This document shows, piece after piece, positions 1 through 16,302 of a stretch of 64,000 bases of DNA. The stretch covers positions 128,001 through 192,000 of the IMG/VR virus record IMGVR_UViG_3300037692_000137; one strand, written 5' to 3'. The stretch is from a virus. Lineage: Duplodnaviria; Caudoviricetes. The translations under genes were made by a program, and so were the position numbers. The notes under the pieces were generated by a model. That model saw only the letters and a list, made by a program, of their open reading frames with translations. It did not search any database and was not told the origin of the DNA. Each line of letters starts with the position of its first letter. Positions within the stretch are counted from its first letter, which is position 1.

Positions 1-3000
1 GTATTCCTCAAAATCTTTTTTCCAAGATTTTTGAAATGGGGACTCACCAAAGTCTTTACCTGGGGTGGCGGTGACTGTGGGGGTATACCCTTTACCTGAC
101 TGTAACAGCGTGGTAGTGGCTACGTCACTAAAAAAACGCTCCCCTAGGTCAAACTCTTTTTTGAAATCTTTTGCTGATATAGCTCTAATACCTGCTCCGG
201 CGCCGGCTACAAACTCGTTAAGTATTTCTATTTTGTCAGTTAACTCATCTTGTATATGATTAGCTGGGAAAATATTCTCAACCAGTTGTTGCATGTTTTT
301 ATCAAAAGAGCGTTCTTCCACCTTTAATGTTTTTGTATTAAAATACTGTGCTACCCATTCAAACACACCATCAGAAGTTTCTTTAAGTTTAACTATTGCC
401 TGTTTACCGGCCATATTGTACTTTGCTGTTACATCATCCATAAAGAGTACTATATCATTATTAAGCACTTTACCCTGACGTTCAAAAAGGCCGGCAGACT
501 CTAGTTTACCCTTAGTTAACTCTTTTGTAAAACCCAACGACTTAGCTTCGGGTAAAGCTCTTTGCATAACTGTTTGGCCTAAAACATCCTGCCAATTAAT
601 TTTACCTTTAAGGGAGGCCACATTTAGCCTGGGCTCCATATTTACAATAACATCATAGCCTTCTTTTAATCTAGGATCGGCAAATATCTTGGCAACCTCA
701 TTTGGGTCTAGGCCCTTAGTATTAATATTACCTAATACATTACTAAATTCTTTGTAAGTAGATGCGTAGTCAGTTCTAAGTGCCTTTAAGGCTTCTTGGT
801 ATTTTTTAATATCTTTGTCAATAGCAGAGGACATAGGGGACTTTGCTTTTATTGCCAGTAACTTATTTAATTGTGCAGTTATGTCAGCAATAGCTTTGGC
901 AGGTGCCACTTTAATACCTTTGGCTAGCATTTCACCAATAACAGGTATTTCACTGGCCATATCTTTAAGCATTTTTTTAGTATTTTCAGAGCCTCCTGTT
1001 TTAGTTAAATCTTCTATAAATTTAGAAGCTACGTCTACTTCGGACTCAGCTAATTGTTTGGTCTTAGACTTATCAAGCACTTTAAAGTAGTCAGCAAAGT
1101 TTGTACTAACTTTAAGCACCGCATTACCCACTTTATCATAGCCTAATACCAAGTTGCTGTTAGATTCTGCTAACTGATTTGCTAAGCTTATGACATCTTC
1201 TTGCGCTTTACCTAAAGTAACTATTGGCGCTTCATACGTACTTAAGGACTTTCTACGTTCTTGAACACCAGGATCTCTTAATTTATTTAAGTCCTCTATC
1301 TTATTTTGTAAAACATCGTAGGAAGCGGCCATATTTTTAATATTAGTGAGACTGTCCTCTTGAACGCTACGGGTATTGTACATAGAATCTGCGTAGTCTT
1401 GCGCAGACTGTGTCATTCTATGGTATTGGTCCCCTAATACTTTTATAGCAGGCACTAAAGCTGCTATTGTGGTCAGTAATGGGGCTACGGCAGCTACAAA
1501 TGATGTATCATCAGTAGCTAGATTCTCAGTTAACTTTTTGCCTATATCGCCCAGAGAGTCACCAAAACCTTTTACAGCCATACCCCCTAAATATGATCCC
1601 ATTCCAGCTACTTCAGCGCCCATGGCCAAACCACCAGAAACTAGTTTCTTTAAAGCCTGATGTATACCTAGTTCTTTTACTGTTTTTTCTACATCCTCTT
1701 TGGTCATACTATTACGTTTTCTAATGTCTGCTACGGTTTCACCTATACCAGCGGTACTACTAAGTTTGGTACCCACTGTTTTACCAGCAGATCCGAAGGA
1801 CGCTATACCTTTACCTGTAGTAGAAATGCTATCAGCAACAAAGCTATTAAATACTTTACCAACTTCTTGTAATTTAAAAGCCAGCTTACCAAAAGATGAA
1901 TGAAAGTCAGATAGTTTAACACCTCTGGCTACGTCTGTTTTTTCGCCTTCTGGGCCAGCAGTAGTAAATTTACCTAATGTCTTTAAACCAGCAGTGGCCA
2001 GTTTACCACCACCTAAACCAAACAGCTCATACTTAGTCTTAGCCAGTTCTTTACTGAACTGTGCTCCAGCGCCGGATATACCTAAAAAGTCTTTACCACC
2101 AGCAAGCATGTCACCTAAGGATTCAGCTAACTGCTGCCCTTTAGTCATATAGGCTAACAAGGTCACAAAAGCAGCTCCGGCAGCTTTAATTGGTGCGGGT
2201 ATAGCTGATAATGCCTCTAAAAATGTTTTAACACCGCTTAAGCCAATTTTAAACGCAGGGAGCGCTACTTTACCAATAGACATCTGCAGTTCTACTAAAG
2301 CAACTTTAGTTTGTTCAAGTTGTTTCCTATAAGTGCCCATTAATTCAGCATTACGCCTTTCTGCCGAACCTTTGGAGTTCATACTATCTTTGGTGGCTCT
2401 TAAAGCTTGGTCCCAGTTATCCATTAAAGCTATAAGAGAGTTGTATTGTCTAGTACCACCAAGTGCTTGGGAGGTGGTTAATTTTTGTGCATTGCTAAGG
2501 TCTTTCCATTTTTTGCTTAGGTCATCTAAAACATTAAACCCAGCCCTTAATTGCCCAGTAGGCTCCATAACAGGGATACCAAGTTTACCTAGTTGCTGTG
2601 GCCCTTTTTCTGCGGAGAGCCTACGTAAAATAAATCTAAGTGAGGTACCAACCTCTTTACCTGACTGCCTTGTAGTTGAACCTATAGCAGCTACAATACC
2701 ATTTAATTGGTCAAAAGTAACACCGGCAATTTTAGCTGCGGAAGCAGATTTTTGGATAGCGTTAGCTAGATCACCAGCAGTAATAGCGCTCTTGGCTTCA
2801 ACCTCACTCCAAGCGTCCAAAAAGCGCATGGCACTGTTGCCCTCTTCTTGATAAATTTTCATAGCTGAGGTTAACGCTTCAGTAGCTTCAGAGGCCTTTA
2901 ATGTTGTAACATTAGCTGCTAAAGTAGATACTCTAGTTCTATCAATAATTTCTGCTTGTGTTAAACCTTGTTGTGCAAAAACGTTCATGGATTGTAGTAT

Positions 3001-6000
3001 ATCAGTTACACCGACACCGTACTGTTTAGCAAATTTAACCGCTGCTGCCGATAATCCTTCAATATCGGCTGATAAAGGGTTTAACATCATTTTAAGAGTA
3101 GCCAAACCATATTCTATTTCGGATAAGGTGCTGATGGCTTGTTTAAGCTGAGCAAAACCACCATAAACTACAGAAGAAGCGGCACCCCATTTAACCGCAC
3201 GGCCTATTGCGCCCCTAAAACCGCTATTAGATCCCTGCATAGCGGCGGCTAAGTCTCTCTCTTTTATAGTTATATCGCTTAATGACTTACCATATTTAGC
3301 AAAGTCTACTACTACATTACGCACAATTTGACCGGTTTGATCAAGTACTTTAATAGGATACGATCTAACCTCACCTACACGAGCACCACCAGCCTCTTGT
3401 GGTTTCTCAAAATATTCTTTTACTTTCTCTACATTACTTGTATGCATCGCAAGCTGTTCTTTTGGTGCTAACCACTTAGGAACTGGCACGGCACCGGCCT
3501 CACCCCAGTCTTTATTAGCAGACTGATTTATCATGGTGTATGAGTTCTCTACCGATTTTAGATACTTTATGACAGTTTCTAAATTCTTCTTTTGGGCTGC
3601 TCCAAAATCGTCTGTTAAATTATACTTCATATAACGTTCGAGAGAAGCACGAAGCCTGCTTAATTTTTCTGCTAAAAGGTCAAAGTCCCAAGCATGCATA
3701 ACATCTGAGCCCATTCTAGTAAGCATCTCAGCGTTCTGCATCATGTCTACCATTTCTCTTTTAACATTGGACCCTGTTATTGTGGATACTGCTGTGCGCG
3801 CTTTTTCTACTGCAGGTGTCATGGTGTTATCTTTTTGTAAGTCAGCCACTATATTTTCAAACATAGCTTGCAGTTGTTTATCGTCACCCAAAGGTGTGGT
3901 AGATTTAGTAGCCAGTTCTCCTGGTGTCTGATAAACGTTTAGTCTACGTGCCATTTCTGGCATTACAAACTTTTTATCTTCTGTGTAAATGTCTGTTCTA
4001 GAACCAGCTACCCTACTAACAAACTTACGCATCCTAGCAATAGCAGATTGTGCTTTACCGTAACTTGCAGTCTCTGATTCAAAGTCTTTTGACGTACTGG
4101 CAGCTTCGTATGCTTTTTTAGCTTCTTTGGCCTGTGATAAATAGTAGTCACCTTCAGCCATTCTGTACAACTTCCAGGCTTTATTTAATTGTGCGCCGGC
4201 TTTACGTTCACCCTCAGGACCTCCTTGATCGGTAGCAAGCTGTTTAAATTTATCTGTTGCTGCTCTGAATTTATCCATATCAGGGCCGGTTTTGCCCGTA
4301 CCCCTAATTATGTCTGACAAATCTTTACTTACTTTTTCTAGATTATTAAGTTCTTCATCATAGTTAATATTACGTACCTGCCGTTGAAATTCTTTGGCAG
4401 CTGTATGAAACGTGATAAAGTTCTCCAAATCAGCCCACACATCTTTACCAGATGCTATTTTAGGGCTGTATAATTTATCTATATCACTAATTGAATCGGT
4501 TTCGTCAAGTTTAAACCCTTTAACTTTCTCTTCATTTTCTTTAGGTGTCATCGGTCTGTAAGAAGAGGTTCTTTGTCGCCCCCCACCAGCACTTTTAATT
4601 GACTCAAAATGTTTTGAGGACTCATCTAACATACTTTTTAAATCAGACTCACTTATGTTTAAAGGACTGGCCTTCTTTGCTGCATTCTCCTGTTCTTCTA
4701 AGCTACCGGTGGTTCTAAACTTACCAGCAAATCTTCTGGCTTTGGATATAGCATCTACATCTTTAGCCAGTAATGCTGGGTCTTGTTTAAACTTTACAAC
4801 TTCTGGTGTATCAGTTCCCTTACTAGTACTACTATAATAGTTAGCCTCGCCTTTAGAGGAGCCAATAGCTGACATATAAACATTTAATTGTGATGCCACG
4901 TCGAGCAGTTTATAGGCCGCGGCCAAACTAGGTTTATCCCCTTTTTCAATTAGTTTAGCATAAACCTCTGGAAAATCGGATGTGCCCGCAGCCTGTATAG
5001 CGACCCCTATGGCGTTTTTAACACCCTCACCTACTGTCTTTATATCTATGGGATACTTTTCACCTGTTGTTTCATTTTTCATTACAACATCTATGTGCCC
5101 AGTTATAGTACCGGCTTTTGTAGTTAAAGCTACAAATTGCTCTATCGCCGATGATGGGTCCATAGACATTATATCTTTTTGTATTTTAGCATGTATAGCT
5201 TGACCAACAAGTGCTGAGGCTTCTAAAAAGTCGTTTGGAACACCACCCTTTTCTCCGCGCATGGCTGCTACTATAGCGGTCAGCTGGCTACTATTTAATT
5301 CTTTTTCGGAGAAATCTTCTCTTTTAAAACCGCTTTTATACTCACCTCCGCCAGCTAAGGCGCTGGCCCGATACATTGTTTCGTATGTAGCCCCATTAAG
5401 TTCATTATTACCACCTGTTATTTGGTTGGACCATTTTTTAAGTTGTTCCACGTCAACAGCCGGCTCGGAGGCCATTTTAGTTTTAGAAGAAGGTGGTGTG
5501 TCCCCTACAAACAGCCCTATACCAGAAGCTATGCTTTGTAAATGTACATTTAAAGCACCGCCTGTAAAAGTAAAAGGGCCGCCAGGAACGCCTGCCCCTG
5601 GAGCACTTATTCCAGGAGTAACGGGTGGTGGTGTGCCACCTACAGAGCCAGTAAGATCCGCATCCATTATAGGAGATGCTACCTTAACTGCTTCTATACC
5701 GGCTGCTGAAGGATAGGCGGTACCCTTTGCGCTACGTCCCGAAGAAACAGGCGGTAACATAGCAGCCACATCCATACCTGAAGCACTTGAGGTCTTAAAT
5801 ACCTTTAAGGCCCTATCTAATGAATACAGTGACTTCATTTTTTCTGAGAATACTTTTACATATTCATCAACTTTGGTTTGCAGTTCTTCTGGGGTTAATC
5901 CTTGATCTTTAAATTTTGTTTCAGCTATCTTGCTAAGTTCGCTCTTACCTAATAACTCTATTTCTTGTAGCACTGAAGGCTCTACTACAGGTAGTCCAGC

Positions 6001-9000
6001 CAGTGTGGTATAGTAATCTACAACATCACGCATGCGCATTAGATCTTTAGCTGAAGATCTATCTTTAAATACCTGCTCATGTATTGGTGACATATCAGCT
6101 AGGTCACCAGTAGTTAATTCAGTAAGTTTACCTATACTGTCTTGTATTGACTTAACATCTAGCGGCTCATAATTAGCTATGGCCGCAGTTGCTGCCTGGA
6201 CGTCCTTCTGAGAATTTTTCAGCCTGTCTGCGGATGTCTTTACTAGTTCACCGTATGCCCCAGATCCGGATACTTCATATAGCTGATTGAGTTCATCCTC
6301 TAAATTGGCTGCTGTAGCTACTGCTTTTGCCATGCTAGAAGAATATCGGGCTTCTTCTTTTTTGCCATAAGACCCTGGCTGTAATTTAGCTATACCCACA
6401 TCTAAGTCTAATGAGCCCTTACCATGTTTACTAATGTAAGCACCAGCTTGGCTTTCTGTGGTAGCACCGGCAGTTCTAAACTTATATAAAGGGGCCTCTT
6501 TACTGGTTATGAGGCTTGAGGCTACCGCAGATGGACTTGACTCTTTTAGTCTACGTGTGTATTCTTCCTCGGCCGCGGCTTTAAGAGTATCAGGAGACAT
6601 CCCTTTACCTCTTGTAGCGGCTATTTGTTTTTGTAATGTATCTAGAGCCGAATTTCTAATAGACTGCTCTAACCGTGTTAGAAAGCCTCTAAAACCCATC
6701 TTGTCTACCATCTCAGCAGTAAACTTATCTATGTCAGATAAATCGGCGGTTACACCGTAGGCAGAGGCCATGCTTTGAACATCCTCTGTCATACCCTTAG
6801 ATAGCATACTATGTATTCTGTCTGTTATAGCCTGTGCGTCTGCTTTAACAAAGTCTTTAAGATCTTCATAGTCTTTGTTGTTTAAAACATTCTTATAAAC
6901 TTTTTCTCCGCCGCCTAGTTCCATTATATCTTTAGTGATGTCTGAAGATACTGATGCCGCGCCAGCATGTTTAACATCCATACCTTTTTGTAGACTAAAT
7001 CTGGTTAGCTCATTCATTCTAGATTGTTCGTCTCTAGAGAACTTCTGGTCGCCCTTGGCGCCTATTAAACTTGAACCGCCCGATACATCTTTATTATAGG
7101 AAAGACTTAGTCTAGTAAAAGCCTCTGTTTCAGGACCAGTGTGTATTTTAAATAACTGCGCTGCCACAGCAGACTTAGTACGCTCATTAGCTAGAGTAGC
7201 TCCGGTTTGAAACTTAAAAGACTTTTTAAACTTGTCATCTAGCGTCTCTACTACCTCAGCTATTTTATCTGCGTTATTTTTTAATTCATCAGCGTTGCTA
7301 AGATCTTTTATATTAGATACAGCAGTTTCTAGTTTATCGGCATCGGTTTTATCCAACATATTGCTTACTTGCTCTAATACTTTGTTTAAATCTTTAGAAT
7401 CCCCAGCCAAAGCTTGGAGTTGCTCTGATAAAGATAAAAAGCCCATATCTTCTGTAGCAAAAGGTTTCTGCATAAAGCTAAAACCTTTTTCTGTTGGGAA
7501 CTTTTTAGCAAAAGATTCACCCATTTCAGCCAGTGTATATTCTGAAGCAGGTGGTTGAACAGCGCCGTAAGTAAACTGGTCTCTAAACACTGATGCTGTA
7601 TCAGTCAAATCTTGAGTTAGTGTGTCGTAATGCTTTTTAATGTCATTTCTAGACTTAAGATTAATAGCAGAGTGGATTTCTATTGCGTCACCGTCAAAGT
7701 CTAGTTTTTGTTGGTGTGCTATATACTTGGGCAGTAAATTAGATATAGCCGCATTAAGACCATCTATCAAATCAGTTAGTTTTGCAAGTTTTTCAGGGGA
7801 GGCCGCAGCACCTTTACCTAATTCTGTTGCCCGCACCGTGGACAAAGATTCTCTCTGTTTTGTCACTCTCTGGATAACCCCAGATAAAGCATCCATAGGT
7901 AAATTAGGCATGCCAGGGACAGCTAGTACATTACTAGCCATACCACCCTTACCTTCACCCAATAATTTAGCTTTATATGGTTGTATGGATGAGGTTCCTG
8001 TAAAGGGGTAACGTAAACTCTCTATATAGGGGGCTAGTTCTTCCTCTATATACTTCTTTATGGTTGCTTTTTCTTCGGAGGTATTACCTTTACCTTGCAG
8101 GTCTTGCGTATAACGCAGCATGTCTAGTAAAGTGCCTTCTACCTTAGTAGCTGGAGCAGCTTCTCCTTCTTTTGTAAATTTCTTGGTGAAGGATACAGGT
8201 ATCTTTCTGGCTATTTCCGCAGGGACTCCAATTTCATGCTGGCCTAATATTGGCAGACCTAACTCACTTGTGCGTTTTAAGCGCTCAGAATGTTTTTCTT
8301 TTATGGACTGTGTTTGTTCTTGTAGTGTTTTTAAATATTTAATACTTTTTTCTGATATCCCCATCTCTTGTTGCATTTCTGGTGATAGGCCCTCTAAATC
8401 ACTTATGATGGCGGACATCTGTGTATCAAATGTTTCTAGATCTTTTGTCTTATCAACAGTGGCGGAAACTGCCTTAGCCATAACAGCTGGAATTTTTCTG
8501 GTAAACAATGTTTCAGCTACAGAGCCACTCTTGCCCAATGTAGTTTCAGCTAAAGTCTCTAAGTAATTTATTTTAGCTTTTTGTACGGCCGCTAATTTAT
8601 TATTCATCTCTTGTTCTAGCATACCCTTACCACCAGAAAAGTCTTTACTGATGGTATTTAGTTGCTCAAGTAAATTACCCTTTGGATCTGTTTTAAACGG
8701 TACTTTACCCTCACTTAATTGACTAGAAACAGTGGCGCCAGCATGTCTAAGCGATTTAAGTATAGCATTATACCTTTTTTCAGCATAGTTAGCTTGTGAT
8801 TGAACAACACCTTCCATAGAACTAGCGTAAGATTTATTCATAGATTCAGATAGGGCATCATTTATATTTTTCTTAAATGTGATCCACATCTGTTCTAGCT
8901 CTTTTACATATTTAGGATCGTAGGTAGATAGTCTTCCACCTTTTACCCTTATATCACTAGTGGTGGATAAAACAGAGGATTTCAACATACCGGCAGCAGC

Positions 9001-12000
9001 CTCTTTCATAACTGCTTCAGCTGTTTTACGAGAGTCTACATTTTTAGCCATGTAGTATTGTTCAGTATTAGTTACAAAATCTTGATAGTCCTTAGCGGAG
9101 TTTATTAAGTTTTGTAACACACGTGTGGGTTCCTCAGGACCAAACTCACCCGCTACCAACGGCTCAGGGTAAACACCTCTACCGGCCGGGGAGGGCACGT
9201 AAAAGTCCTCAAAAGCTGTGGGCTTTTGCCCTAGCTTAGCTTTAGAAGCATCTGGGGAAGGTAGTTGCAACATGAATGGTTTATTGAATTTCTCAACATC
9301 CATAACGGTACCAAGCATGCTGCGTTTACCCTTATCCAGTGTTCCAGTAGAGTAGTCAAAAGAGTTCAATTCGTCTACTGATACCTTATCCAATTTATTT
9401 CGTAAGGCACCTAAAACCTCTGAGTCTTTATTAGTATTGGCTATTAAAGTTTTTATATATTCCCAATGTTTTTTATCAGTATCACTCAACTGCTCAACAA
9501 GGTCCGCCTGACTACCAGCACCTTGAATTGGTGTTTGGTTTATTTCCTTCATCAACTCAGAATCTTTGCCAAACACATTCAGGTAAGCAGTATAAGCAGG
9601 CACGTTTAACTTAGCGCCTTTTACACGTTTGCGCACGTCGGTGGTAGACCATGCCTCGGTAGCTGTGGGTTCTTCTACTACCTGTAAGAATTTTTGACCT
9701 ACTAGACTTTTTCGTTTTTCTCCAAATTCGTCTATAACCTCTGAGTAGAAATTAGACATTTCTTCAAGAGCTGCACCACGCTTTGCCATTACGGCGGCTT
9801 GATCAGACTGCTTACCACGCTGCATAAATATTTTTGTCAATTCTTTTTCTGCTTTACCTGGGTCTGTTCCCTTAAAACCCAAGGCGGAACTATATGTAGA
9901 TAAGGACTCTTTGCCGCCACCAAGTAATTTTTTATACATGTCAGGATCAAAAGTGTCACGTAGTGTGGTATGTGCCTCATCTTTTTCCGAGGCTTTCTGA
10001 ACGTTAGCTACGTTGTTAAGTATTGTTTCTAATACCTCTGTCTGTAAACCACGTTTACCAGCACCTAAAGAGCTAATTCTAACATCGATAGGTTTTAGTT
10101 CGTATAAACCACCCTCTTTAATCATACTACTATATGTTTGTTTTAGGTTGTTTATGCCGTCTACACCGTCTGTTATAGCTATACCGATAGAGCTAAACAG
10201 CTCTTTGGCCTTATTGTATATATCTTGCTGTATTGTGGCCTCCTCTGGAACTGTCAACCCTGAAGTAGCATCTTTAAAATACTCTATCATAAACTTATTA
10301 CCGGAATTTATGAGTTGTGATTTTAGTCCTTCTACTTCTGATTGAGAAGCGCCAGATGCTGTAAGCCCCTCTATTTGACTATCTAGTAATTCAGCTGCCA
10401 ACTGTCCCATACTTTTAGGCATTTTGGCAGTACCTAAACCAGCGTTTACCTGCTCTTCACTAGTGAGCACTTTTATGTTTTTATCACCCCAAGTTTTAAG
10501 AATATCTGACATTTTAGATGTGTCAGTAGAGGTCATAGAAACACCTTTTGAACCAAAACGAGTAGTAAATTTTCTACCGAAATGATTCATAAAAACTTCG
10601 GCCACTTTTGCTGCCTGTACTTCTACATTCTCAGAACGTACCGTAGCCATACTTTTCTGTACTTCTGTAATAAAAGCTTTATCAGCCCGGCCTTTATACG
10701 TATTACTGACCCCCATCATATCTTGAAACTGGCTATATACTTTATTAATAGCGTCAGCTGAGTCTACATCTTTTAATACGCCTGGCTTAACATCAGATAC
10801 AGCCTCAGTACCTTTACCAGAAGTACTTAGCTCCTTACCGAGCATTCTACCGCCGGCGGCAGGTAAAACTAACGTCTTTGTTAAAGAAGTAACAGCATCA
10901 GCTAATTTACCAGATACAAGTATCTGGTCCTCAAAAGTACCAGAAGTGTGTCGTAGCTCCGCAGTTACATTGAACCCATAGCCCTTCTCACCATAACGAC
11001 CGCCTTCTATTAAAGATTTTTCACGCTCTGTTCTTAATGTGGGTGTTGTTGTGCCTAGACCCTTTACACGGGATACACCAAATTTATCAGTAAGCCCGTT
11101 TATCTCATCTATAGAAGAAGACATAGCGTTAGTAACGCCGGCTATGTTACGCCCCAGTTGTTGAAATTCACCAAAAGGTGCCATGCTTGTTAAGTCATCA
11201 ACAAACATTTTTATGTTAGTTCCACCTAGCGCTTTTAGATAAGATAACCCCTCTTCATAATCTTTGTTATCTTCATCTGCGCCTCTAACTTTATTAGACT
11301 TAAGATAGGCTATAGAGCTGGCCTGGGATTCAGGTATACCCAAAGAGGCTAGTTTTCTTCCTTGCGAGGGTAATTCCTGTAATCGTTTAACAATCAGTGT
11401 AGACTCCGGAGATTCTGTGGCTAGTTTAGCTAGCATATCTCTTTCAGCGTACATTTCTTTGAAACGTAGATTTAAGTCTTTAATATAGTTTTTATGCTCT
11501 TCTGGTTTTAACTCATAATCTCTCTCAGTAGGATATAGTCCTGGAGTACCTCTAGAAAGAAGATTAACCACGTTGGACTGTTGTAATCCTCGGCGAGGTT
11601 TGCCTGGTTCTATTAGAGGCATTAGCTGCTCTACTTGCTTTGTGGCACTTTCAAAGCCTCTGGCACCACTTTGGTATGCTGGTTTTTCTACTAATTTTTT
11701 AAGTGGTGCTTCTAAAACCTTACCATAGATATCATATATATTTTTAAATTCTACCTTGTCCAAAGCTTTAGCAAAATCGTATGCGGATACTTGGGCCGCG
11801 TTCATTATATTGACAAATGACATAACCTGTGTTTTAAGGTCTTTATTTGGATCAAGTGTAAACTGATCTATTTGCTTATTTATATTGGTTAATGTAGGCT
11901 GTATATCTAAGTCAGGGTCTATGCGTTTTTTCTGAACCATTGTTGAAACTGCGGCTGCCTTGTACCCCTCCTTAATACCCGAGAATTCCTTTGTTACACG

Positions 12001-15000
12001 GGCGTGCTCAGTTACTGGTGATTCATTTGGTTTAAAGGTGCTTATGTCAGCCAGTAACTTAGTTACCAAGTCAGATACAGCACTCTGCTCTAAACGTGTT
12101 TGTGGATTAACACCTATAGATTGTATTTTAGATGTGTAGTCTTCCTCGCGACGCAGCGTTCCGGCTTGTAAAGCTTTGCTATAGAGCTTCTCTAGACCTG
12201 TTTCAAACATGGCAAATTTAGATAAGGCCCTCTCTGATCCGTGTGCAGTTTCTAATATAGGGGTTCCGGAAGGAGTCATTCTAGCGGCAGGCAGTGCTAC
12301 ATTACGTATGTAGGGTGCAGGGTGCTCTCTCCTTGTGGTGTCTACGTCGGCTAGGCCTCTATTAACCTCAGCCACAGCATAGGTCTGTCTAGTGAGTTGT
12401 GTTAGAGGACCAAGCTGGCTACCTACTGCTTTTTTCACGCCCTCTACTAAATTGACACTACCTTTAGAAGTTTCATAAGCGGTTTTAAGATCAAGCAATG
12501 CTTTTTTAATTTCAGGATCTGACACAGTGGTCCAACCAGCTATATTTTCTTTTGACGCAGATTTCATCCATGTGGCTACTTTACTAGCCAGTAAGTCTGT
12601 ATTTTCGTCAGTACTTCCGCCATGAGTTATACCAGCCATCAATTTATCAAGTTGAAGTTCTTTAAATGCTGATACTATTTGGTTTGGATCTCCTGTAGCA
12701 GTTCTTTTACTTTTTGTAAGTTCCTTTTGCATAGACTTTATATCTGCTATCTGCATGGTCCACATCTTAGAGTTAGTCTGATTTAGACTATTACTTACAT
12801 TTGTAAAGTATTTGCTGCTTTCCGGAGCGCCGGGCATTTCTAAAGGCTTCCAGTCAGACTTACCAAGCTGCTCGGTAACTGTTTTAGTAATATCTTTTAG
12901 TAGGGCATTCAATGAATTAGATAGTTGGCGCTCCATAGCATGGACGTCGAGGGAGGCTCTTGACGTGGATATACCTTTAAGTATGTCTTGTACGGACTCA
13001 GCCATCTGATCTTTTGCAGCCGATACTTTATCAAACTCTTGTTTCATACTATCAGGACTATAACTACCCGCTGCTGGTTTTATTACTTTAGACCCATAAA
13101 TAGCCCGTTGTTCTGGTATATTACCTATGGATTTAATTCTTGCTACGTTAACATCGGGTATAGTGGGTGACTTGACGCCAACGTTAGTACCACTTTTTGT
13201 AGTAGGTGCCGCCAAGACAGTATGTTTAGTACTATCAGATAGTTTAGTTAAAGAAGCGGCTACCTCGGCTACATTACGTTCTAATGCCTCAAATTTGCTG
13301 CTTAAATCATCTGTTTTTATAGCTCTAACTTTAGTTACTAAACTATCAACAACCTGAGACCCGGCTTTGGCTTGATTGACCATAGCAACCTCAGTTGTAT
13401 TTTGTAGTTCCTCAATTAAAGAGCGTAGTGCTGCAATCTCACCTGAAGCTTTTTTCACCTCTGGGCTATTAAAAGAACCAGTTCTTATAGCCTTATTTAT
13501 AGCCTCAGTTTTAACACTTAAAGAGTCTGTAAGAACTCCTTTTAAAGATTCTAAATTCTTTTTTAAATTAGATATAGCCTGTTTATAGTTATTAAAATAA
13601 CCACTTAAAGCTTTGGCAGCCTCATCCGCATTTAAATCAAGCAGTACATCTAATTTTACATTATCTGGGAATTTAGCTGTTATTAGTTTCTCTATATTTT
13701 CTAACTTGGGGGATACTATAATTTCAGCTGTCCCAGAAGAAATTTCTTTTATTACAGAGTTAAGTTCTTTTTTAATATCAGCTGTATCAATTGTTACATC
13801 TAATGAGGCGGCCTTATCAATAATAGTTAGTAGTGCGGTTATCTCTTTTAATTTTTTATTGAGAGCACCATCTACACCTATTTTAAGATCTCTGTCCTTT
13901 ACTAAAGAGTCAATTTCTTTTTCGGCGGTTTTAGTATCAGCAGCAACCTGTACAGTAACTTTACCACTAAGAGAGTTTACTAAGGAGTCAACTGTTTTTC
14001 TTAACTCTTTATCATCAATATCAACGGATATAGTTAACTTTTCTGAAAGTTTGCTAAGCTTATTAATTATATCTTTATCGTTGAGCGCTACATCTAATTG
14101 TTGTTTAGCCCTCTTAGTAACAATGCCAACATCTTTTATATTACCGGTAGCGCCACTAGCTTTTAAAAGTTTAGGTAATTCCTCTAATGACTTGCTTATA
14201 TTATGTAACTCAGCAATCATAGAAACTAGCGCCTTGTCTGTTTGTTTAGAGGGCTCTTTACTACCGGTACTTGCTTGCTTAACAGCGGTTAATGCCGTTA
14301 GTCCTTTTTCTACTGATTTGGTTATAGCTGATGCTAGTTTGTCTGCATCAATATTTCCTCCGGCGGAGGAACGTTGTTTTGTGGTCTCTTCTTTTACAGC
14401 CTTTTTTATTTGACTTAATTCTTTTATAACGTCGGCACTAGCTGCTGGTGAGGATTCCACTACTTTGGATAGCCTTGTCAGGCCGGAAGTAAGTTGTTTA
14501 ATCTCTGAATATAATTTTGATAGTCCGGCACTCACTGCCTTTACATCTGATGTGTCTTTGGTAGTGGTAACTGTAGATTTGTAGGAGTTGTCTACACTTT
14601 TAGCTAAACCATCTATAGCTGTTTGTAATTTAGTTAGTTTACCAAAATCTGCGGAAGCTGGATCTTTTTTAATGGCTGTTAGAATGGAGGCGTTAAGATC
14701 GCGGATACTTTTTTCGATAGATGCTTTGTCGGATTTTCCTGACGCAGCACTTAGTACTTTTGTTAAAGCGCCTAATTCCTTTGTTACAACTGATTCTAGT
14801 GCTTTGGTATCTAATGCTGTGGTTGATTTACCAGAAGCTGTGGTACCCGTCATAGTAACGCTTCTTTGGAACTCCTTGGCTATTGTTTTGGAAATGGTAT
14901 CCGCTATAATCTTTGCTTGCTGCGCAGTAGCTTTTGTAGCAGTACTTGCCTGAGCCTTACCATTTATGTCGATAAGTCCGTCTCTTAGCGCTTTTTTAAT

Positions 15001-15141
15001 AGAAGAAGCTAACTTGTCATTTAAATTATTAAATGCTTTTGTTAGTGTACTATCTAAAGTAGTTGCAATATTATCAGACTTAGTACTTCCTGCGCTTGAT
15101 CCACTTATTATGTGAGATACTGTAATGTCGTGCTTAGCCAA
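1..15141 (-). CDS. Giant tail tape measure protein fused to a two-barrel RNA polymerase and a PD-(D/E)xK nuclease (>=5047 aa, runs off the left edge)
   Basis: TTG start at 15139-15141 with AGGAGG 7 nt upstream (MAKHDITVSHIISGS...). All motifs checked from 15141 to base 1 (...KKDFEEY) are in the same frame. It is absent from the ORF track, consistent with no stop inside the window. TP901-type core at ~2300-3240 (GAIGRAVKWGAASSVVYGGFAQLKQAI...AKQYGVGVTDILQSMNVFAQQG...RQSGKEVGTSLRFILRRL). Position follows major tail protein and chaperones. Confidence 0.93.
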   Translation of the reverse strand, partial: MAKHDITVSHIISGSSAGSTKSDNIATTLDSTLTKAFNNLNDKLASSIKKALRDGLIDINGKAQASTATKATAQQAKIIADTISKTIAKEFQRSVTMTGTTASGKSTTALDTKALESVVTKELGALTKVLSAASGKSDKASIEKSIRDLNASILTAIKKDPASADFGKLTKLQTAIDGLAKSVDNSYKSTVTTTKDTSDVKAVSAGLSKLYSEIKQLTSGLTRLSKVVESSPAASADVIKELSQIKKAVKEETTKQRSSAGGNIDADKLASAITKSVEKGLTALTAVKQASTGSKEPSKQTDKALVSMIAELHNISKSLEELPKLLKASGATGNIKDVGIVTKRAKQQLDVALNDKDIINKLSKLSEKLTISVDIDDKELRKTVDSLVNSLSGKVTVQVAADTKTAEKEIDSLVKDRDLKIGVDGALNKKLKEITALLTIIDKAASLDVTIDTADIKKELNSVIKEISSGTAEIIVSPKLENIEKLITAKFPDNVKLDVLLDLNADEAAKALSGYFNNYKQAISNLKKNLESLKGVLTDSLSVKTEAINKAIRTGSFNSPEVKKASGEIAALRSLIEELQNTTEVAMVNQAKAGSQVVDSLVTKVRAIKTDDLSSKFEALERNVAEVAASLTKLSDSTKHTVLAAPTTKSGTNVGVKSPTIPDVNVARIKSIGNIPEQRAIYGSKVIKPAAGSYSPDSMKQEFDKVSAAKDQMAESVQDILKGISTSRASLDVHAMERQLSNSLNALLKDITKTVTEQLGKSDWKPLEMPGAPESSKYFTNVSNSLNQTNSKMWTMQIADIKSMQKELTKSKRTATGDPNQIVSAFKELQLDKLMAGITHGGSTDENTDLLASKVATWMKSASKENIAGWTTVSDPEIKKALLDLKTAYETSKGSVNLVEGVKKAVGSQLGPLTQLTRQTYAVAEVNRGLADVDTTRREHPAPYIRNVALPAARMTPSGTPILETAHGSERALSKFAMFETGLEKLYSKALQAGTLRREEDYTSKIQSIGVNPQTRLEQSAVSDLVTKLLADISTFKPNESPVTEHARVTKEFSGIKEGYKAAAVSTMVQKKRIDPDLDIQPTLTNINKQIDQFTLDPNKDLKTQVMSFVNIMNAAQVSAYDFAKALDKVEFKNIYDIYGKVLEAPLKKLVEKPAYQSGARGFESATKQVEQLMPLIEPGKPRRGLQQSNVVNLLSRGTPGLYPTERDYELKPEEHKNYIKDLNLRFKEMYAERDMLAKLATESPESTLIVKRLQELPSQGRKLASLGIPESQASSIAYLKSNKVRGADEDNKDYEEGLSYLKALGGTNIKMFVDDLTSMAPFGEFQQLGRNIAGVTNAMSSSIDEINGLTDKFGVSRVKGLGTTTPTLRTEREKSLIEGGRYGEKGYGFNVTAELRHTSGTFEDQILVSGKLADAVTSLTKTLVLPAAGGRMLGKELSTSGKGTEAVSDVKPGVLKDVDSADAINKVYSQFQDMMGVSNTYKGRADKAFITEVQKSMATVRSENVEVQAAKVAEVFMNHFGRKFTTRFGSKGVSMTSTDTSKMSDILKTWGDKNIKVLTSEEQVNAGLGTAKMPKSMGQLAAELLDSQIEGLTASGASQSEVEGLKSQLINSGNKFMIEYFKDATSGLTVPEEATIQQDIYNKAKELFSSIGIAITDGVDGINNLKQTYSSMIKEGGLYELKPIDVRISSLGAGKRGLQTEVLETILNNVANVQKASEKDEAHTTLRDTFDPDMYKKLLGGGKESLSTYSSALGFKGTDPGKAEKELTKIFMQRGKQSDQAAVMAKRGAALEEMSNFYSEVIDEFGEKRKSLVGQKFLQVVEEPTATEAWSTTDVRKRVKGAKLNVPAYTAYLNVFGKDSELMKEINQTPIQGAGSQADLVEQLSDTDKKHWEYIKTLIANTNKDSEVLGALRNKLDKVSVDELNSFDYSTGTLDKGKRSMLGTVMDVEKFNKPFMLQLPSPDASKAKLGQKPTAFEDFYVPSPAGRGVYPEPLVAGEFGPEEPTRVLQNLINSAKDYQDFVTNTEQYYMAKNVDSRKTAEAVMKEAAAGMLKSSVLSTTSDIRVKGGRLSTYDPKYVKELEQMWITFKKNINDALSESMNKSYASSMEGVVQSQANYAEKRYNAILKSLRHAGATVSSQLSEGKVPFKTDPKGNLLEQLNTISKDFSGGKGMLEQEMNNKLAAVQKAKINYLETLAETTLGKSGSVAETLFTRKIPAVMAKAVSATVDKTKDLETFDTQMSAIISDLEGLSPEMQQEMGISEKSIKYLKTLQEQTQSIKEKHSERLKRTSELGLPILGQHEIGVPAEIARKIPVSFTKKFTKEGEAAPATKVEGTLLDMLRYTQDLQGKGNTSEEKATIKKYIEEELAPYIESLRYPFTGTSSIQPYKAKLLGEGKGGMASNVLAVPGMPNLPMDALSGVIQRVTKQRESLSTVRATELGKGAAASPEKLAKLTDLIDGLNAAISNLLPKYIAHQQKLDFDGDAIEIHSAINLKSRNDIKKHYDTLTQDLTDTASVFRDQFTYGAVQPPASEYTLAEMGESFAKKFPTEKGFSFMQKPFATEDMGFLSLSEQLQALAGDSKDLNKVLEQVSNMLDKTDADKLETAVSNIKDLSNADELKNNADKIAEVVETLDDKFKKSFKFQTGATLANERTKSAVAAQLFKIHTGPETEAFTRLSLSYNKDVSGGSSLIGAKGDQKFSRDEQSRMNELTRFSLQKGMDVKHAGAASVSSDITKDIMELGGGEKVYKNVLNNKDYEDLKDFVKADAQAITDRIHSMLSKGMTEDVQSMASAYGVTADLSDIDKFTAEMVDKMGFRGFLTRLEQSIRNSALDTLQKQIAATRGKGMSPDTLKAAAEEEYTRRLKESSPSAVASSLITSKEAPLYKFRTAGATTESQAGAYISKHGKGSLDLDVGIAKLQPGSYGKKEEARYSSSMAKAVATAANLEDELNQLYEVSGSGAYGELVKTSADRLKNSQKDVQAATAAIANYEPLDVKSIQDSIGKLTELTTGDLADMSPIHEQVFKDRSSAKDLMRMRDVVDYYTTLAGLPVVEPSVLQEIELLGKSELSKIAETKFKDQGLTPEELQTKVDEYVKVFSEKMKSLYSLDRALKVFKTSSASGMDVAAMLPPVSSGRSAKGTAYPSAAGIEAVKVASPIMDADLTGSVGGTPPPVTPGISAPGAGVPGGPFTFTGGALNVHLQSIASGIGLFVGDTPPSSKTKMASEPAVDVEQLKKWSNQITGGNNELNGATYETMYRASALAGGGEYKSGFKREDFSEKELNSSQLTAIVAAMRGEKGGVPNDFLEASALVGQAIHAKIQKDIMSMDPSSAIEQFVALTTKAGTITGHIDVVMKNETTGEKYPIDIKTVGEGVKNAIGVAIQAAGTSDFPEVYAKLIEKGDKPSLAAAYKLLDVASQLNVYMSAIGSSKGEANYYSSTSKGTDTPEVVKFKQDPALLAKDVDAISKARRFAGKFRTTGSLEEQENAAKKASPLNISESDLKSMLDESSKHFESIKSAGGGRQRTSSYRPMTPKENEEKVKGFKLDETDSISDIDKLYSPKIASGKDVWADLENFITFHTAAKEFQRQVRNINYDEELNNLEKVSKDLSDIIRGTGKTGPDMDKFRAATDKFKQLATDQGGPEGERKAGAQLNKAWKLYRMAEGDYYLSQAKEAKKAYEAASTSKDFESETASYGKAQSAIARMRKFVSRVAGSRTDIYTEDKKFVMPEMARRLNVYQTPGELATKSTTPLGDDKQLQAMFENIVADLQKDNTMTPAVEKARTAVSTITGSNVKREMVDMMQNAEMLTRMGSDVMHAWDFDLLAEKLSRLRASLERYMKYNLTDDFGAAQKKNLETVIKYLKSVENSYTMINQSANKDWGEAGAVPVPKWLAPKEQLAMHTSNVEKVKEYFEKPQEAGGARVGEVRSYPIKVLDQTGQIVRNVVVDFAKYGKSLSDITIKERDLAAAMQGSNSGFRGAIGRAVKWGAASSVVYGGFAQLKQAISTLSEIEYGLATLKMMLNPLSADIEGLSAAAVKFAKQYGVGVTDILQSMNVFAQQGLTQAEIIDRTRVSTLAANVTTLKASEATEALTSAMKIYQEEGNSAMRFLDAWSEVEAKSAITAGDLANAIQKSASAAKIAGVTFDQLNGIVAAIGSTTRQSGKEVGTSLRFILRRLSAEKGPQQLGKLGIPVMEPTGQLRAGFNVLDDLSKKWKDLSNAQKLTTSQALGGTRQYNSLIALMDNWDQALRATKDSMNSKGSAERRNAELMGTYRKQLEQTKVALVELQMSIGKVALPAFKIGLSGVKTFLEALSAIPAPIKAAGAAFVTLLAYMTKGQQLAESLGDMLAGGKDFLGISGAGAQFSKELAKTKYELFGLGGGKLATAGLKTLGKFTTAGPEGEKTDVARGVKLSDFHSSFGKLAFKLQEVGKVFNSFVADSISTTGKGIASFGSAGKTVGTKLSSTAGIGETVADIRKRNSMTKEDVEKTVKELGIHQALKKLVSGGLAMGAEVAGMGSYLGGMAVKGFGDSLGDIGKKLTENLATDDTSFVAAVAPLLTTIAALVPAIKVLGDQYHRMTQSAQDYADSMYNTRSVQEDSLTNIKNMAASYDVLQNKIEDLNKLRDPGVQERRKSLSTYEAPIVTLGKAQEDVISLANQLAESNSNLVLGYDKVGNAVLKVSTNFADYFKVLDKSKTKQLAESEVDVASKFIEDLTKTGGSENTKKMLKDMASEIPVIGEMLAKGIKVAPAKAIADITAQLNKLLAIKAKSPMSSAIDKDIKKYQEALKALRTDYASTYKEFSNVLGNINTKGLDPNEVAKIFADPRLKEGYDVIVNMEPRLNVASLKGKINWQDVLGQTVMQRALPEAKSLGFTKELTKGKLESAGLFERQGKVLNNDIVLFMDDVTAKYNMAGKQAIVKLKETSDGVFEWVAQYFNTKTLKVEERSFDKNMQQLVENIFPANHIQDELTDKIEILNEFVAGAGAGIRAISAKDFKKEFDLGERFFSDVATTTLLQSGKGYTPTVTATPGKDFGESPFQKSWKKDFEEY
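2300..3240 (-). other. Tape-measure core domain (TP901-like), residues ~3970-4280 of the giant ORF
   Basis: Typical helical tape-measure motifs: LDAWSEVEAKSAITAGDLANAIQKSASAAKIAGVTFDQLNGIVAAIG, LGKLGIPV..PTGQLRAGFNVLDDL, SAERRNAELMGT. Confidence 0.85.
4780..5230 (-). other. PD-(D/E)xK (Cas4/RecB-like) nuclease domain within the giant ORF
   Basis: GQAIHAKIQ (H3317), IEQFV, GHID (D3351), PIDIKT (D3366/K3368), SQLNVY (Q3418/Y3422) in canonical order. Confidence 0.75.
6950..11190 (-). other. Single-chain double-psi beta-barrel RNA polymerase domain within the giant ORF (residues ~1320-2730)
   Basis: Beta-like: MAPFGEFQQLGRN, TFEDQILVS (10912-10938), GRKFTTRFGSKGVS (10537-10578), PIDVRISSLGAGKRGLQTEVLE. 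Beta'-like: GQHEIGVP, LRYPFTGTSSIQ, KLDFDGDAIEIH (DFDGD at 7687-7701), LQKGMDVKHAG trigger-loop pattern (6961-6990). Confidence 0.9.
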
Positions 15142-15220: not shown

Positions 15221-16243
15221 TTAACTCCGGCGAGTGCGTTTTTTAATATCCGTTCTATCCTTTATTTTCTGGGCTTCTTTAGGTTTGTCATATTTTATAT
15301 CTTGATATAGATCATTAGACTGAGTAATTATTACTTCCTCTTTATTAAAGGCGGACATTCTACCTTTATTGGTCTTATTACTTTTTCTAGCAGCAGCCTC
15401 TTTTGTACGCTCATTATAGTAATCAGTCATATATGCATCTAATGCTTCATCATCATCTATTATACTGTCCGGGGGTCTGTCCTCGGGCATCATTTCATAT
15501 ATGTTAGAGTAGTAACTTGACCAATATATCAAATTCAACTGATCATTGGAGTATTCTACTGTAGGTATACCAAATAGGGCCTCATTAACTTTTTGGCTAT
15601 GTACATAACGTATACGCCATAAGTTGTGCCTTGCTATAAGCCTAATATTCTTCATTGGGATTCCATGATAAAAATGCAGAAAAGTATTCATAACTTTAAT
15701 CTTAAAGGCTATGTTTTTTTCTAACACCAAACTGTCAACGTTGTCCCAATAGTGCTTATCACCTTGTTCTGTGTAGGTGCAGGCCCAGCACAAGTAATTA
15801 TGCCTTTCTTCGTCAGCTTTTGTTTCGGCGGACATGACTAACCTAGAGTTCTTTTTATATTCTATTTCATTTATTTGATCTTTAATTTTATTGATAAGCC
15901 GTTTAATTCTTTCTGCATTAGCTTTTACTTTGGTGGTTTTAGACAGAAGCGCTTCTTGTGCTTCTAATTGTGACTTGAGTTTGTCAACTTTTGCTATGTC
16001 TTCTTCTGTATATAAACCACGCTCACTTAGTAACTGCTCTAGCTCAGTTATAGAGTACAACCCTTCACGGGTTGCTTGCTTATAGGCCCTCTCATAAACT
16101 AATGTAGCTCTAAGACGTATTTCAGAAGTTGGTTGCTTAAATATTAAGTATACATCTTCTGAACCTATAGTAATGTTTACTATTTCCTTTCCTGTGAAAA
16201 TCTTAAGTAGACAACTATCGACTTCTTCATAAGATAGTTCCAT
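15221..16243 (-). CDS. Putative tail assembly chaperone (340 aa), paralogue of the adjacent gene
   Basis: Immediately upstream of the tape measure gene; shares PT..R.A...Y...Y....EG.....E...L..RG pattern with 16303..17061. Confidence 0.55.
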   Translation of the reverse strand: MELSYEEVDSCLLKIFTGKEIVNITIGSEDVYLIFKQPTSEIRLRATLVYERAYKQATREGLYSITELEQLLSERGLYTEEDIAKVDKLKSQLEAQEALLSKTTKVKANAERIKRLINKIKDQINEIEYKKNSRLVMSAETKADEERHNYLCWACTYTEQGDKHYWDNVDSLVLEKNIAFKIKVMNTFLHFYHGIPMKNIRLIARHNLWRIRYVHSQKVNEALFGIPTVEYSNDQLNLIYWSSYYSNIYEMMPEDRPPDSIIDDDEALDAYMTDYYNERTKEAAARKSNKTNKGRMSAFNKEEVIITQSNDLYQDIKYDKPKEAQKIKDRTDIKKRTRRS

Positions 16244-16265
16244 GCGTGGCCTTATATATAGTTAT

Positions 16266-16285
16266 GGGGCTGTATAAACAGCCCC
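16266..16285 (-). terminator. GC-rich hairpin between the two chaperone genes
   Basis: GGGGCTGT-TTAT-ACAGCCCC; no clear U tract. Confidence 0.4.
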
Positions 16286-16302
16286 TTACAACAGACAATT
16301 CT

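Follow-up and report, generated by a model that had tools for sequence, protein, structure and literature searches.

A RecB-family nuclease domain within the giant, polymerase-bearing tape measure protein of an uncultured phage

Tape measure proteins have long been regarded as passive rulers that carry cell-wall-cutting additions at most, and the length of the tape measure sets the length of the tail. Thermus phage P23-45 (Oshimavirus) encodes a 5,002-aa tape measure protein, gp96, with a fused virion RNA polymerase; virions contain this DFDGD two-barrel enzyme, which is responsible for transcribing the first phage genes (PMC10770324). Phages and conjugative elements also encode long multi-enzyme chains, the polyvalent proteins, for which delivery with the DNA and action in the earliest moments of invasion have been proposed (Iyer et al. 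2017, PMC5512222). Among nucleases, the characterised Cas4 proteins Sulfolobus SSO0001 (PDB 4ic1) and Pyrobaculum Pcal_0546 (4r5q) are Mn/Mg-dependent 5'-3' ssDNA exo- and endonucleases. Cas4 is defined by four conserved cysteines holding an Fe-S cluster ([4Fe-4S] or [2Fe-2S]), and the metal ligands named for SSO0001 are His62, Asp99 and Glu113 (PMC4176176). Here we describe a nuclease domain located between an RNA polymerase module and the ruler part of a giant tape measure protein.

The giant tape measure protein and its polymerase module

The stretch of DNA analysed (64,000 nucleotides, hereafter the window) belongs to the linear, 89% complete record of an uncultured 234-kb phage. Its low end is occupied by a giant minus-strand ORF, whose reading frame stays open over 5,047 codons between 15141 and the edge of the window; the complete product has 7,715 residues, none of them cysteine. 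The following features were located in this part of the gene:

1..15141, minus strand: giant tape measure gene, first 5,047 codons, with a TTG start at 15141, leaving the window at its low end (PhageMin_Tail and PHROG tape-measure matches)
6742..8754, minus strand: beta-prime-like RNA polymerase active-site module, residues 2130-2800 (alignment A2, model and VIA matches)
7687..7701, minus strand: DFDGD, the polymerase metal-binding Asp triad, residues 2481-2485 (sequence and alignment A2)
2455..3048, minus strand: canonical tape-measure core, residues ~4032-4229 (Pfam PF10145, E 4.5e-27, and PHROG tape-measure families)
2155..2211, minus strand: hydrophobic membrane-type segment 1, residues 4311-4329 (sequence)
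1444..1500, minus strand: hydrophobic membrane-type segment 2, residues 4548-4566 (sequence)

The match to PF10145 (TP901-type PhageMin_Tail) was above the curated cut-off, and PHROG tape-measure families matched the ORF down to E 2e-76. Hydrophobic segments were also present, and the gene lies in a structural block with head and virion genes upstream. The nuclease is encoded on the same polypeptide as the PF10145 core, and its placement inside a tape measure protein by the first-pass annotation was thus correct. The entire protein has only three hydrophobic segments, the third at residues 6676-6694, and all are C-terminal to the nuclease. An HNH homing-type endonuclease gene was found close by in the structural block.

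Along the chain, the beta-prime-like RNA polymerase module is followed by a linker, the nuclease cassette and the tape-measure core. When a model of residues 2130-2800 was compared with known structures using VIA, the top 50 matches were all largest RNAP subunits (Z ~11). Consistent RNAP matches came from VIA only: a phmmer search of PDB sequences with the polymerase region gave no match, and Foldseek of the model gave nothing at E <= 0.001. The stretch L-D-F-D-G-D was invariant in alignment A2. A co-occurrence of the nuclease with DFDGD, proposed for checking in the first-pass annotation, was borne out: the motif was present in 74/74 full-length relatives, including every full-length carrier of the nuclease, in one case as DHDGD. 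The ruler thus shares its chain with a predicted two-barrel-type polymerase with a DxDxD metal site, of which one barrel was modelled. The nuclease profile match begins 653-1,182 residues (median 828) after the Asp triad.

Fold, motifs and inheritance of the nuclease domain

Residues ~3272-3491 form a RecB-family PD-(D/E)XK nuclease domain with the full predicted metal-binding and catalytic set. The domain is flanked by flexible linkers and lies N-terminal to every membrane-type segment. Its features are:

5557..5649, minus strand: Pro/Gly-rich flexible linker before the cassette, residues ~3165-3195 (sequence; poorly conserved)
4594..5481, minus strand: nuclease cassette, the insertion/deletion unit, residues 3221-3516 (block absent from relative P0032; collinear BLASTP with a clean gap)
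4669..5328, minus strand: PD-(D/E)XK (RecB-family) nuclease domain core, residues 3272-3491 (profile envelope, model and structural matches)
5191..5205, minus strand: motif I, G3313-x3-H3317, with the His in line with metal ligand His62 of Cas4 SSO0001
5140..5142, minus strand: E3334, invariant Glu in the first core strand (alignment of copies)
5089..5100, minus strand: motif II, G3348-H-I-D3351, with the Asp in line with Asp99 of SSO0001
5038..5046, minus strand: motif III, D3366-I-K3368, in line with Glu113-x-Lys115 of SSO0001
4876..4890, minus strand: QhxxY motif, Q3418-L-N-V-Y3422 (alignment of copies)

The RecB-family motifs had been listed in this order, and their residue numbering was exact on recount. 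A span of 4780-5230 had been given for the domain, which located it properly and was too narrow, as the profile envelope covers 4669-5328 and the insertion/deletion unit 4594-5481.

The AlphaFold2 model of the domain (mean pLDDT 85) contains the restriction-endonuclease-like alpha-beta-beta-beta-alpha-beta core, with a helix at 35-58 and strands at 63-72, 75-86 and 93-101, followed by a helix and more strands. All top structural matches were of the PD-(D/E)XK fold, so the suggested fold check returned a confident prediction, with Cas4, RecB-type and lambda-exonuclease-type enzymes matching best. In Foldseek, the best matches were Cas4 SSO0001 (4ic1; E 2e-5), MGME1, EXO5, RecE, AdnAB and lambda exonuclease, and VIA-align gave Z scores of 12.3 for 4ic1, 11.0 for LHK-Exo and ~10 for lambda exonuclease and MGME1. 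The closest Atlas clusters were viral PDDEXK_1, Cas4, YqaJ and RecE-like proteins (TM 0.57-0.67). A three-copy complex prediction of the domain, aimed at a lambda-exonuclease-like ring, scored 0.00 and spoke neither for nor against such a ring.

At the sequence level, the single domain had no significant match in Pfam, NCBIfam or PDB sequences; PF12705 (PDDEXK_1) did not match the window's own domain in the Pfam search and was matched by 8 of 29 homologues (best E 5.7e-5). The relationship was exposed only by PHROGs, the family profile and structure comparison. PHROG 1706, a phage Cas4-like family, matched the nuclease region at E 7e-9, and a profile of the 29 homologues matched the SSO0001 sequence at E 1e-5 with every motif in register. 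Taken together, the sequence and fold matches lie well outside chance. By spacing in this profile alignment, the H, D and (D/E)xK of the nuclease correspond to His62, Asp99 and Glu113 (+Lys115). Judged from these searches, the domain is a divergent branch of the PDDEXK_1 clan, marginally recognised by curated models.

Conservation was analysed in 72 copies of the domain with a median identity of 26% to the query. E3334, D3351, K3368, Q3418 and Y3422 were invariant, D3366 was Asp in 71 copies and Glu in one, and H3317 was present in 70. The catalytic residues that had been called intact (D3351, D3366 and K3368) are thus near-invariant, and the suggested check of conservation found the acidic residues, the Lys and QhxxY essentially unchanged across homologues. 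Conservation of the domain stands out against the poorly conserved linkers on both sides, and its dN/dS against the closest relative is 0.068. From its motif set, the nuclease is apparently active.

The family was found solely inside giant RNA-polymerase/tape-measure proteins and never in a stand-alone form. These proteins constitute a lineage of at least 74 members, each ~5,000-8,000 residues long and encoded by contigs that reach ~325 kb; tblastn against 50,697 GenBank phages gave no match, and hence no cultured carrier was identified. The domain is carried by 60 of the 74 full-length relatives, and the other 14 have the polymerase without it, indicating that neither transcription nor infection strictly needs the nuclease. 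One nuclease-less relative, P0032, is 56-61% identical overall and collinear except for a clean gap of ~296 residues. At least 6-8 independent clean losses were found, with polymerase and ruler retained. The nuclease tree mirrors the polymerase tree in its deep split (SH-aLRT 99) and in all nine well-supported subclades, and in 46 related records there was one copy per genome, at a constant site, and none elsewhere. The nuclease is thus inherited vertically under strong purifying selection. Its co-divergence with the polymerase, combined with several clean deletions, identifies it as an old accessory module, and its repeated loss as one that is helpful but dispensable. In one subclade, an RNase_T/DEDD exonuclease that is unrelated to the nuclease described here is added close to the N-terminus of the tape measure.

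The same genome encodes a separate, canonical PDDEXK_1 exonuclease adjoining RuvC, which by this gene context would serve ordinary recombination. A recent internal duplication from this stand-alone protein was rejected, as the profile-profile match comprised just 13 columns at motif I (probability 1.7%).

Proposed processing of the phage's own genome ends and alternative roles

A conserved, apparently active nuclease within a tape measure implies that the phage probably injects the nuclease together with its DNA. The roles suggested in the first-pass annotation, namely attack on host DNA or defence loci, processing of genome ends and action together with the polymerase, are all candidates. We consider it likely that the domain is an active Mg/Mn-dependent DNA nuclease, which would be harmless while the tape measure is extended in the tail tube and would fold only after ejection, on the polymerase side of the membrane. 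Lambda exonuclease, RecE and Cas4 start at DNA ends and proceed in the 5' to 3' direction; entering phage DNA has such ends, whereas the host chromosome is circular. The affinity of the domain to this end-acting clade, together with a tether at the mouth of the entry channel, points to the linear genome ends of the phage itself as the first and main substrates. Accordingly, we tentatively hypothesize, with a probability of roughly 0.4, that the nuclease processes these ends before phage expression. Anchored at the cytoplasmic opening of the entry channel, it would attack the leading genome end first and the trailing end last, and would resect the 5' strand ahead of all phage gene expression. 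This would leave 3' single-stranded tails, which would shut out host end-dependent nucleases of the RecBCD/AddAB type, would permit annealing of terminal repeats and thereby circularisation, and might offer a single-stranded template to the adjoining polymerase. The presence of a stand-alone recombination exonuclease, unrelated to the tape-measure copy, favours such a pre-expression role for the latter.

In vitro, duplex DNA is a far poorer template than single-stranded or denatured DNA for the crAss-like virion polymerase gp66 (bioRxiv 10.1101/2020.03.07.982082), a preference that would by analogy count for the single-stranded template. The absence of the domain from 14 of the 74 polymerase-bearing relatives weakens this branch in particular. 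It is unlikely, in our estimate, that the tape measure is a self-contained machine that injects, resects and transcribes, in which the nuclease-resected end would template an ssDNA-preferring polymerase in cis and the first transcripts would arise from resected DNA at the entry-channel mouth without any host factor.

The main rival to end processing, possible though doubtful, is a host-takeover or counter-defence effector, in which the injected nuclease would attack host DNA, plasmids, prophages, co-infecting phages or defence DNA intermediates such as CRISPR prespacers rather than the phage's own ends. The patchy loss of the domain is also expected of such an effector, and at least 6-8 clean independent losses with polymerase and ruler kept are the typical pattern of arms-race cargo. 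Cas4/RecB nuclease domains also cut ssDNA endonucleolytically, and ends are therefore not the sole possible substrate. The RNase_T/DEDD exonuclease of one subclade suggests a theme of nuclease payloads, and injected polyvalent proteins that carry DNase domains have been put forward as conflict effectors (PMC5512222). However, the structural clade mainly needs DNA ends, which the phage DNA provides on the spot and the circular chromosome does not, and the incoming genome would itself be at risk from an unspecific DNase fixed at its point of entry. Pfam, PHROGs and BLASTP found no targeting or recognition domain in the cassette, and the strictly vertical divergence with very conserved surface motifs differs from the fast diversification of many effectors.

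We regard as improbable a partnership with the polymerase on RNA, in the form of transcript 5'-end processing, cleavage or primer making as known from DXO/Rai1 and from the cap-snatching endonucleases that are fused to some viral RNA polymerases. The covalent link to an RNA polymerase would fit this, and the weaker VIA matches included the Hantaan L endonuclease (Z 6.9), DXO1 (6.5) and DXO (6.1). DNA exonucleases matched far better (Z 10-12 vs 6-7), QhxxY and the sequence-level matches are specific to the RecB/Cas4 DNA-nuclease lineage, and 14 lineages have kept the polymerase without this domain.

Still less probable is a catalytically dead structural or DNA-binding spacer that adds ruler length or holds the DNA end. 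Any insert alters a ruler whose length determines that of the tail, and end-binding ejection proteins exist, as exemplified by 80alpha gp44 (PMC7290940). An intact metal site would be needless for a spacer, and 70-72 of 72 copies keep the catalytic residues at 26% median identity, with a dN/dS of 0.068. The clean presence or absence of a ~296-residue block at a single site and the nearby HNH gene might recall a selfish homing-endonuclease-like cassette or intein, a very remote prospect that was rejected because the nuclease and polymerase trees agree (including the deep split with SH-aLRT 99 and all nine subclades) and the domain occurs as a single copy at a single site with none elsewhere in 46 related records, and which also conflicts with the strong purifying selection and a model without any Hint or intein fold.

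Comparison with known systems

Cas4 (DUF83) is the best profile and structural match, with RecB motifs I, II and III, QhxxY and the metal ligands in register. In contrast to Cas4, the domain has no cysteine (none in 71 of 72 copies) and hence no Fe-S "iron staple", and it scored 13.1 bits against TIGR00372, for which the cut-off is 65 (E 0.065). It is encoded in a tape measure gene of the virion structural block and not beside cas genes, as part of a 7,715-aa structural protein instead of a free enzyme of ~200 aa. The original description as "Cas4/RecB-like" therefore holds for the RecB-like fold and motifs and not for Cas4 in the strict sense, whose four Fe-S cysteines are absent. The domain shows that a Cas4-like fold can dispense with the Fe-S cluster, and at 25 kDa and free of cysteine it should express easily.

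The established job of the lambda Exo/RecE/YqaJ/LHK-Exo type is 5'-3' resection of linear DNA ends. The domain resembles these enzymes in having the same fold (Z 9-11), no cysteine and a phage origin, and its closest predicted-structure clusters are viral. However, sequence similarity to them is detectable through profiles only, and they are expressed after infection, whereas the nuclease described here would be pre-made and delivered with the virion. Pfam and PHROGs revealed no annealase (Red-beta, RecT or Erf) as a partner within the 400-900 flanking residues, and the cassette boundaries leave no space for one.

With polyvalent proteins the tape measure shares a single long polypeptide bearing several enzymatic domains. 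It differs in that the carrier is a tail ruler and the nuclease a PD-(D/E)XK enzyme; tape measure proteins are unmentioned in PMC5512222.

The closest counterpart of the whole protein is P23-45 gp96, likewise a giant tape measure with a DFDGD polymerase N-terminal to the membrane and ruler parts. The polymerase of gp96 lies at the N-terminus (DFDGD at 779), whereas here the motif is at 2481, with a long variable region before it and the nuclease cassette after it, in a polymerase without detectable sequence similarity to solved structures. The nuclease family profile found nothing at E<=1, and thus no close relative, in the complete P23-45 genome; it also missed that phage's own RecB-family exonuclease, and is therefore narrow. 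No nuclease is reported in gp96, and a literature search turned up no nuclease domain within a tape measure protein, in agreement with the first-pass annotation, which gave the RNAP-tape fusion as a precedent but none that also carries this nuclease. The best literature match on nuclease and tape measure concerned a nuclease of the host, by which tape measure proteins are recognised, rather than one encoded by a phage. The predicted nuclease thus appears to be new, with no publication found describing one in a tape measure protein. Its arrival ahead of phage gene expression would represent a novel type of activity in the first minute, for which end processing, evasion of RecBCD-type nucleases and attack on resident DNA are candidates. 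P23-45 showed that a tape measure can bear an RNA polymerase; the present lineage adds a second nucleic-acid enzyme, and one subclade a third, suggesting that the ruler is used as a delivery vehicle for enzymes.

Architecture of the giant tape measure protein

The putative nuclease lies within a tape measure protein of 7,715 residues when complete, encoded on a linear virus record of 234,228 bp with an estimated completeness of 89% (IMG/VR). The window covers bases 128,001-192,000 of this record. The genes around its start are listed first, followed by the order of regions along the chain.

15141 to the low-numbered window edge, minus strand: tape measure ORF, TTG start, 5,047 codons within the window
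15221-17061, minus strand: two ORFs (340 and 252 aa) directly upstream of the tape measure gene, in the tail-assembly-chaperone position
19205-20611, minus strand: HNH/homing-endonuclease-like ORF, 468 aa (phrog_559, E 1.5e-113; weaker Mom-like match)
Residues 1 to ~950: variable region
Residues ~950-2750: conserved polymerase block, DFDGD at 2481
After the polymerase: stretch of weak conservation, with a Pro/Gly-rich linker (~3165-3195) at its end
Residues 3272-3491: nuclease
Between nuclease and tape-measure core: second weakly conserved stretch
Tape-measure core: strongly conserved, PF10145 at ~4032-4229
Residues 4311-4329, 4548-4566 and 6676-6694: the chain's only hydrophobic, membrane-type segments
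C-terminal to these segments: long variable tail

The 340- and 252-aa ORFs matched no PHROG family at E<=0.001. The 468-aa HNH ORF lies a few kb upstream of the tape measure ORF, within the block of tail and structural genes.

The polymerase reading of the region around DFDGD was checked in part, by alignment and modelling. LDFDGD was invariant among 25 diverse relatives, and the best 50 VIA rows for a model of residues 2130-2800 (pLDDT 69) were all largest subunits of cellular or viral multisubunit RNA polymerases (Z ~11); Foldseek E-values for this model were not significant on their own. Both polymerase and nuclease are N-terminal to every hydrophobic segment and should therefore reach the same compartment.

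A RecB-like nuclease lacking cysteines

The motifs noted in the first-pass annotation were placed exactly: G3313-x3-H3317, E3334, G3348-H-I-D3351, D3366-I-K3368 and Q3418-L-N-V-Y3422. As a single sequence, the domain gave no or marginal matches to Pfam, NCBIfam and PDB sequences, and residues 3305-3372 matched PHROG 1706, a Cas4-like phage family (E 7e-9). A profile built from 29 copies matched the Sulfolobus Cas4 protein SSO0001 (PDB 4ic1; E 1e-5), the His, Glu, Asp and (D/E)xK positions all lining up, and 8 of these copies touched Pfam PDDEXK_1. The SSO0001 metal ligands named in PMC4176176 correspond in this profile alignment to H3317, D3351 and D3366. An AlphaFold2 model based on the same 29 copies (mean pLDDT 85, core >95) predicted a restriction-endonuclease-like fold. 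Its best Foldseek matches were SSO0001 (E 2e-5), MGME1, EXO5, RecE, AdnAB and lambda exonuclease, and VIA-align Z scores were 12.3 (SSO0001), 11.0 (LHK-Exo), 10.7 (DinG nuclease domain), 10.5 (Cas4-Cas1) and ~10 (lambda exonuclease and MGME1). The closest ESM-Atlas structure clusters were viral PDDEXK_1, Cas4, YqaJ and RecE-like, in agreement with a language-model feature search.

The domain had been described as "Cas4/RecB-like", of which the RecB-like part stands and true Cas4 does not. Cas4 is defined by an Fe-S cluster held by four cysteines (PMC4176176). Cysteine is absent from the domain and from the entire 7,715-residue protein, and TIGR00372 scores the domain at 13 bits where its cut-off is 65. 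When a search with the polymerase region widened the family to 72 proteins, 71 of the 72 nuclease copies also lacked cysteine. The most fitting description is a PD-(D/E)XK nuclease of the RecB / Cas4 / lambda-exonuclease branch that is divergent and contains no iron. Cysteine avoidance is family-wide: 57 of 71 giant homologues contain none and the maximum is 4, where ~75 would be expected. This avoidance accounts for the missing Cas4 Fe-S cluster, and may itself reflect unfolded passage through tail and periplasm.

Selection, distribution and history

The 72 nuclease copies have a median identity to the query of 26%, and G3313, E3334, G3348, D3351, K3368, Q3418 and Y3422 are invariant among them. 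Asp occupies position 3366 in 71 copies and Glu in the remaining one, and H3317 is present in 70, in line with the earlier view that the catalytic residues appear intact. Compared with the closest lineage (loci L004-L007, 94% polymerase identity), dN/dS was 0.068 for the nuclease at a near-saturated dS of ~1.1, vs 0.04-0.05 for its flanks. Along the whole protein the domain stands out as an island of conservation, with weakly conserved linkers on both sides. Given the retained catalytic residues, the low dN/dS and this island, an inactive relic is very unlikely.

When 1.84 billion representatives were searched exhaustively with HMMER, the domain matched only 27 clusters, mostly proteins of 3,700-7,900 residues; of seven shorter matches, five were fragments of giant proteins and two spanned little besides the domain. 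No phage in the GenBank collection matched it by tblastn. The lineage comprises at least 74 full-length RNAP-tape-measure proteins (~5,000-8,000 aa) and 47 IMG/VR loci, on contigs reaching ~325 kb, one record of 268,764 bp being rated 100% complete. The nuclease is found in 60 of the 74 full-length relatives and missing from 14. In the suggested check for co-occurrence with DFDGD, all full-length carriers have the aspartate triad (DHDGD in one), and the profile match begins 653-1,182 residues (median 828) past it.

Absence is precise. P0032, a relative with 56-61% identity throughout, aligns collinearly and lacks exactly residues 3221-3516, and P0035 and P0043 show the identical clean gap. In quick tree searches with midpoint roots, absence required at least 8 changes on the polymerase-core tree, at least 6 of them forced by well-supported branches, and the nuclease-only tree recovered the deep split (SH-aLRT 99) and 9/9 well-supported polymerase-tree subclades. 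Among related IMG/VR records, mostly fragments, 37 of 46 had exactly one profile match, always within the giant frame; the large nuclease-less records (228, 161 and 238 kb) had no profile match anywhere. The simplest history suggested by these sequences is a single old acquisition followed by vertical descent and repeated clean loss, pointing to a useful yet dispensable module. A mobile cassette, or a gene moving out to stand alone, was rejected in favour of this history.

Possible role during genome entry

The catalytic set is complete, is under purifying selection, and sits beside a polymerase, ahead of membrane segments, in a structural protein of the kind that is ejected. Tape measure proteins are the first to exit the tail and probably line or open the way for the DNA. 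Enzymes of the RecB / Cas4 / lambda-exonuclease clade start from DNA ends, which the host chromosome lacks, while both phage genome ends would pass the channel mouth where the nuclease is tethered. For these reasons we tentatively favour, at a probability of roughly 40%, resection of the 5' strands of the phage's own ends ahead of any gene expression. As part of an extended, unfolded ruler the nuclease would be unable to harm the packaged genome, gaining activity only upon refolding inside the cell. The resulting 3' tails could block entry of RecBCD/AddAB-type nucleases, let terminal repeats anneal, and perhaps serve the polymerase. In phage P23-45 the polymerase part is carried in the virion by full-length gp96 and is responsible for transcribing the earliest genes (PMC10770324). 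In vitro, a crAss-like virion polymerase shows a strong preference for single-stranded templates (bioRxiv 10.1101/2020.03.07.982082). The 14 lineages with polymerase and no nuclease count against the polymerase-template version.

The main rival, a host-attack or counter-defence effector, is somewhat less likely: the patchy loss of the nuclease fits it, but end-dependent chemistry and the absence of any targeting domain fit it less well. Also in keeping with such an effector, one subclade (P0074, P0076-P0080, P0082, P0083) carries an extra RNase_T/DEDD exonuclease domain near the N-terminus (residues ~200-410; PF00929, E 4e-7 to 7e-8), and P0082 has this domain and no PD-(D/E)XK domain. The same phage also encodes, outside the window at ~72,800-75,250 (locus L002), an unrelated stand-alone canonical PDDEXK_1 exonuclease of 384 aa (E 1e-23), immediately next to genes for a RuvC resolvase and a complete DnaJ chaperone. 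Its service in later, ordinary recombination would fit a separate task for the tape-measure nuclease at an earlier stage.

A full-text literature search found no nuclease embedded in a tape measure protein. The P23-45 study reports none in its tape measure protein (PMC10770324), and a survey of polyvalent proteins mentions no tape measure and, as DNases, ParB-like ones only (PMC5512222). The tape-measure-embedded nuclease is new to the literature searched.
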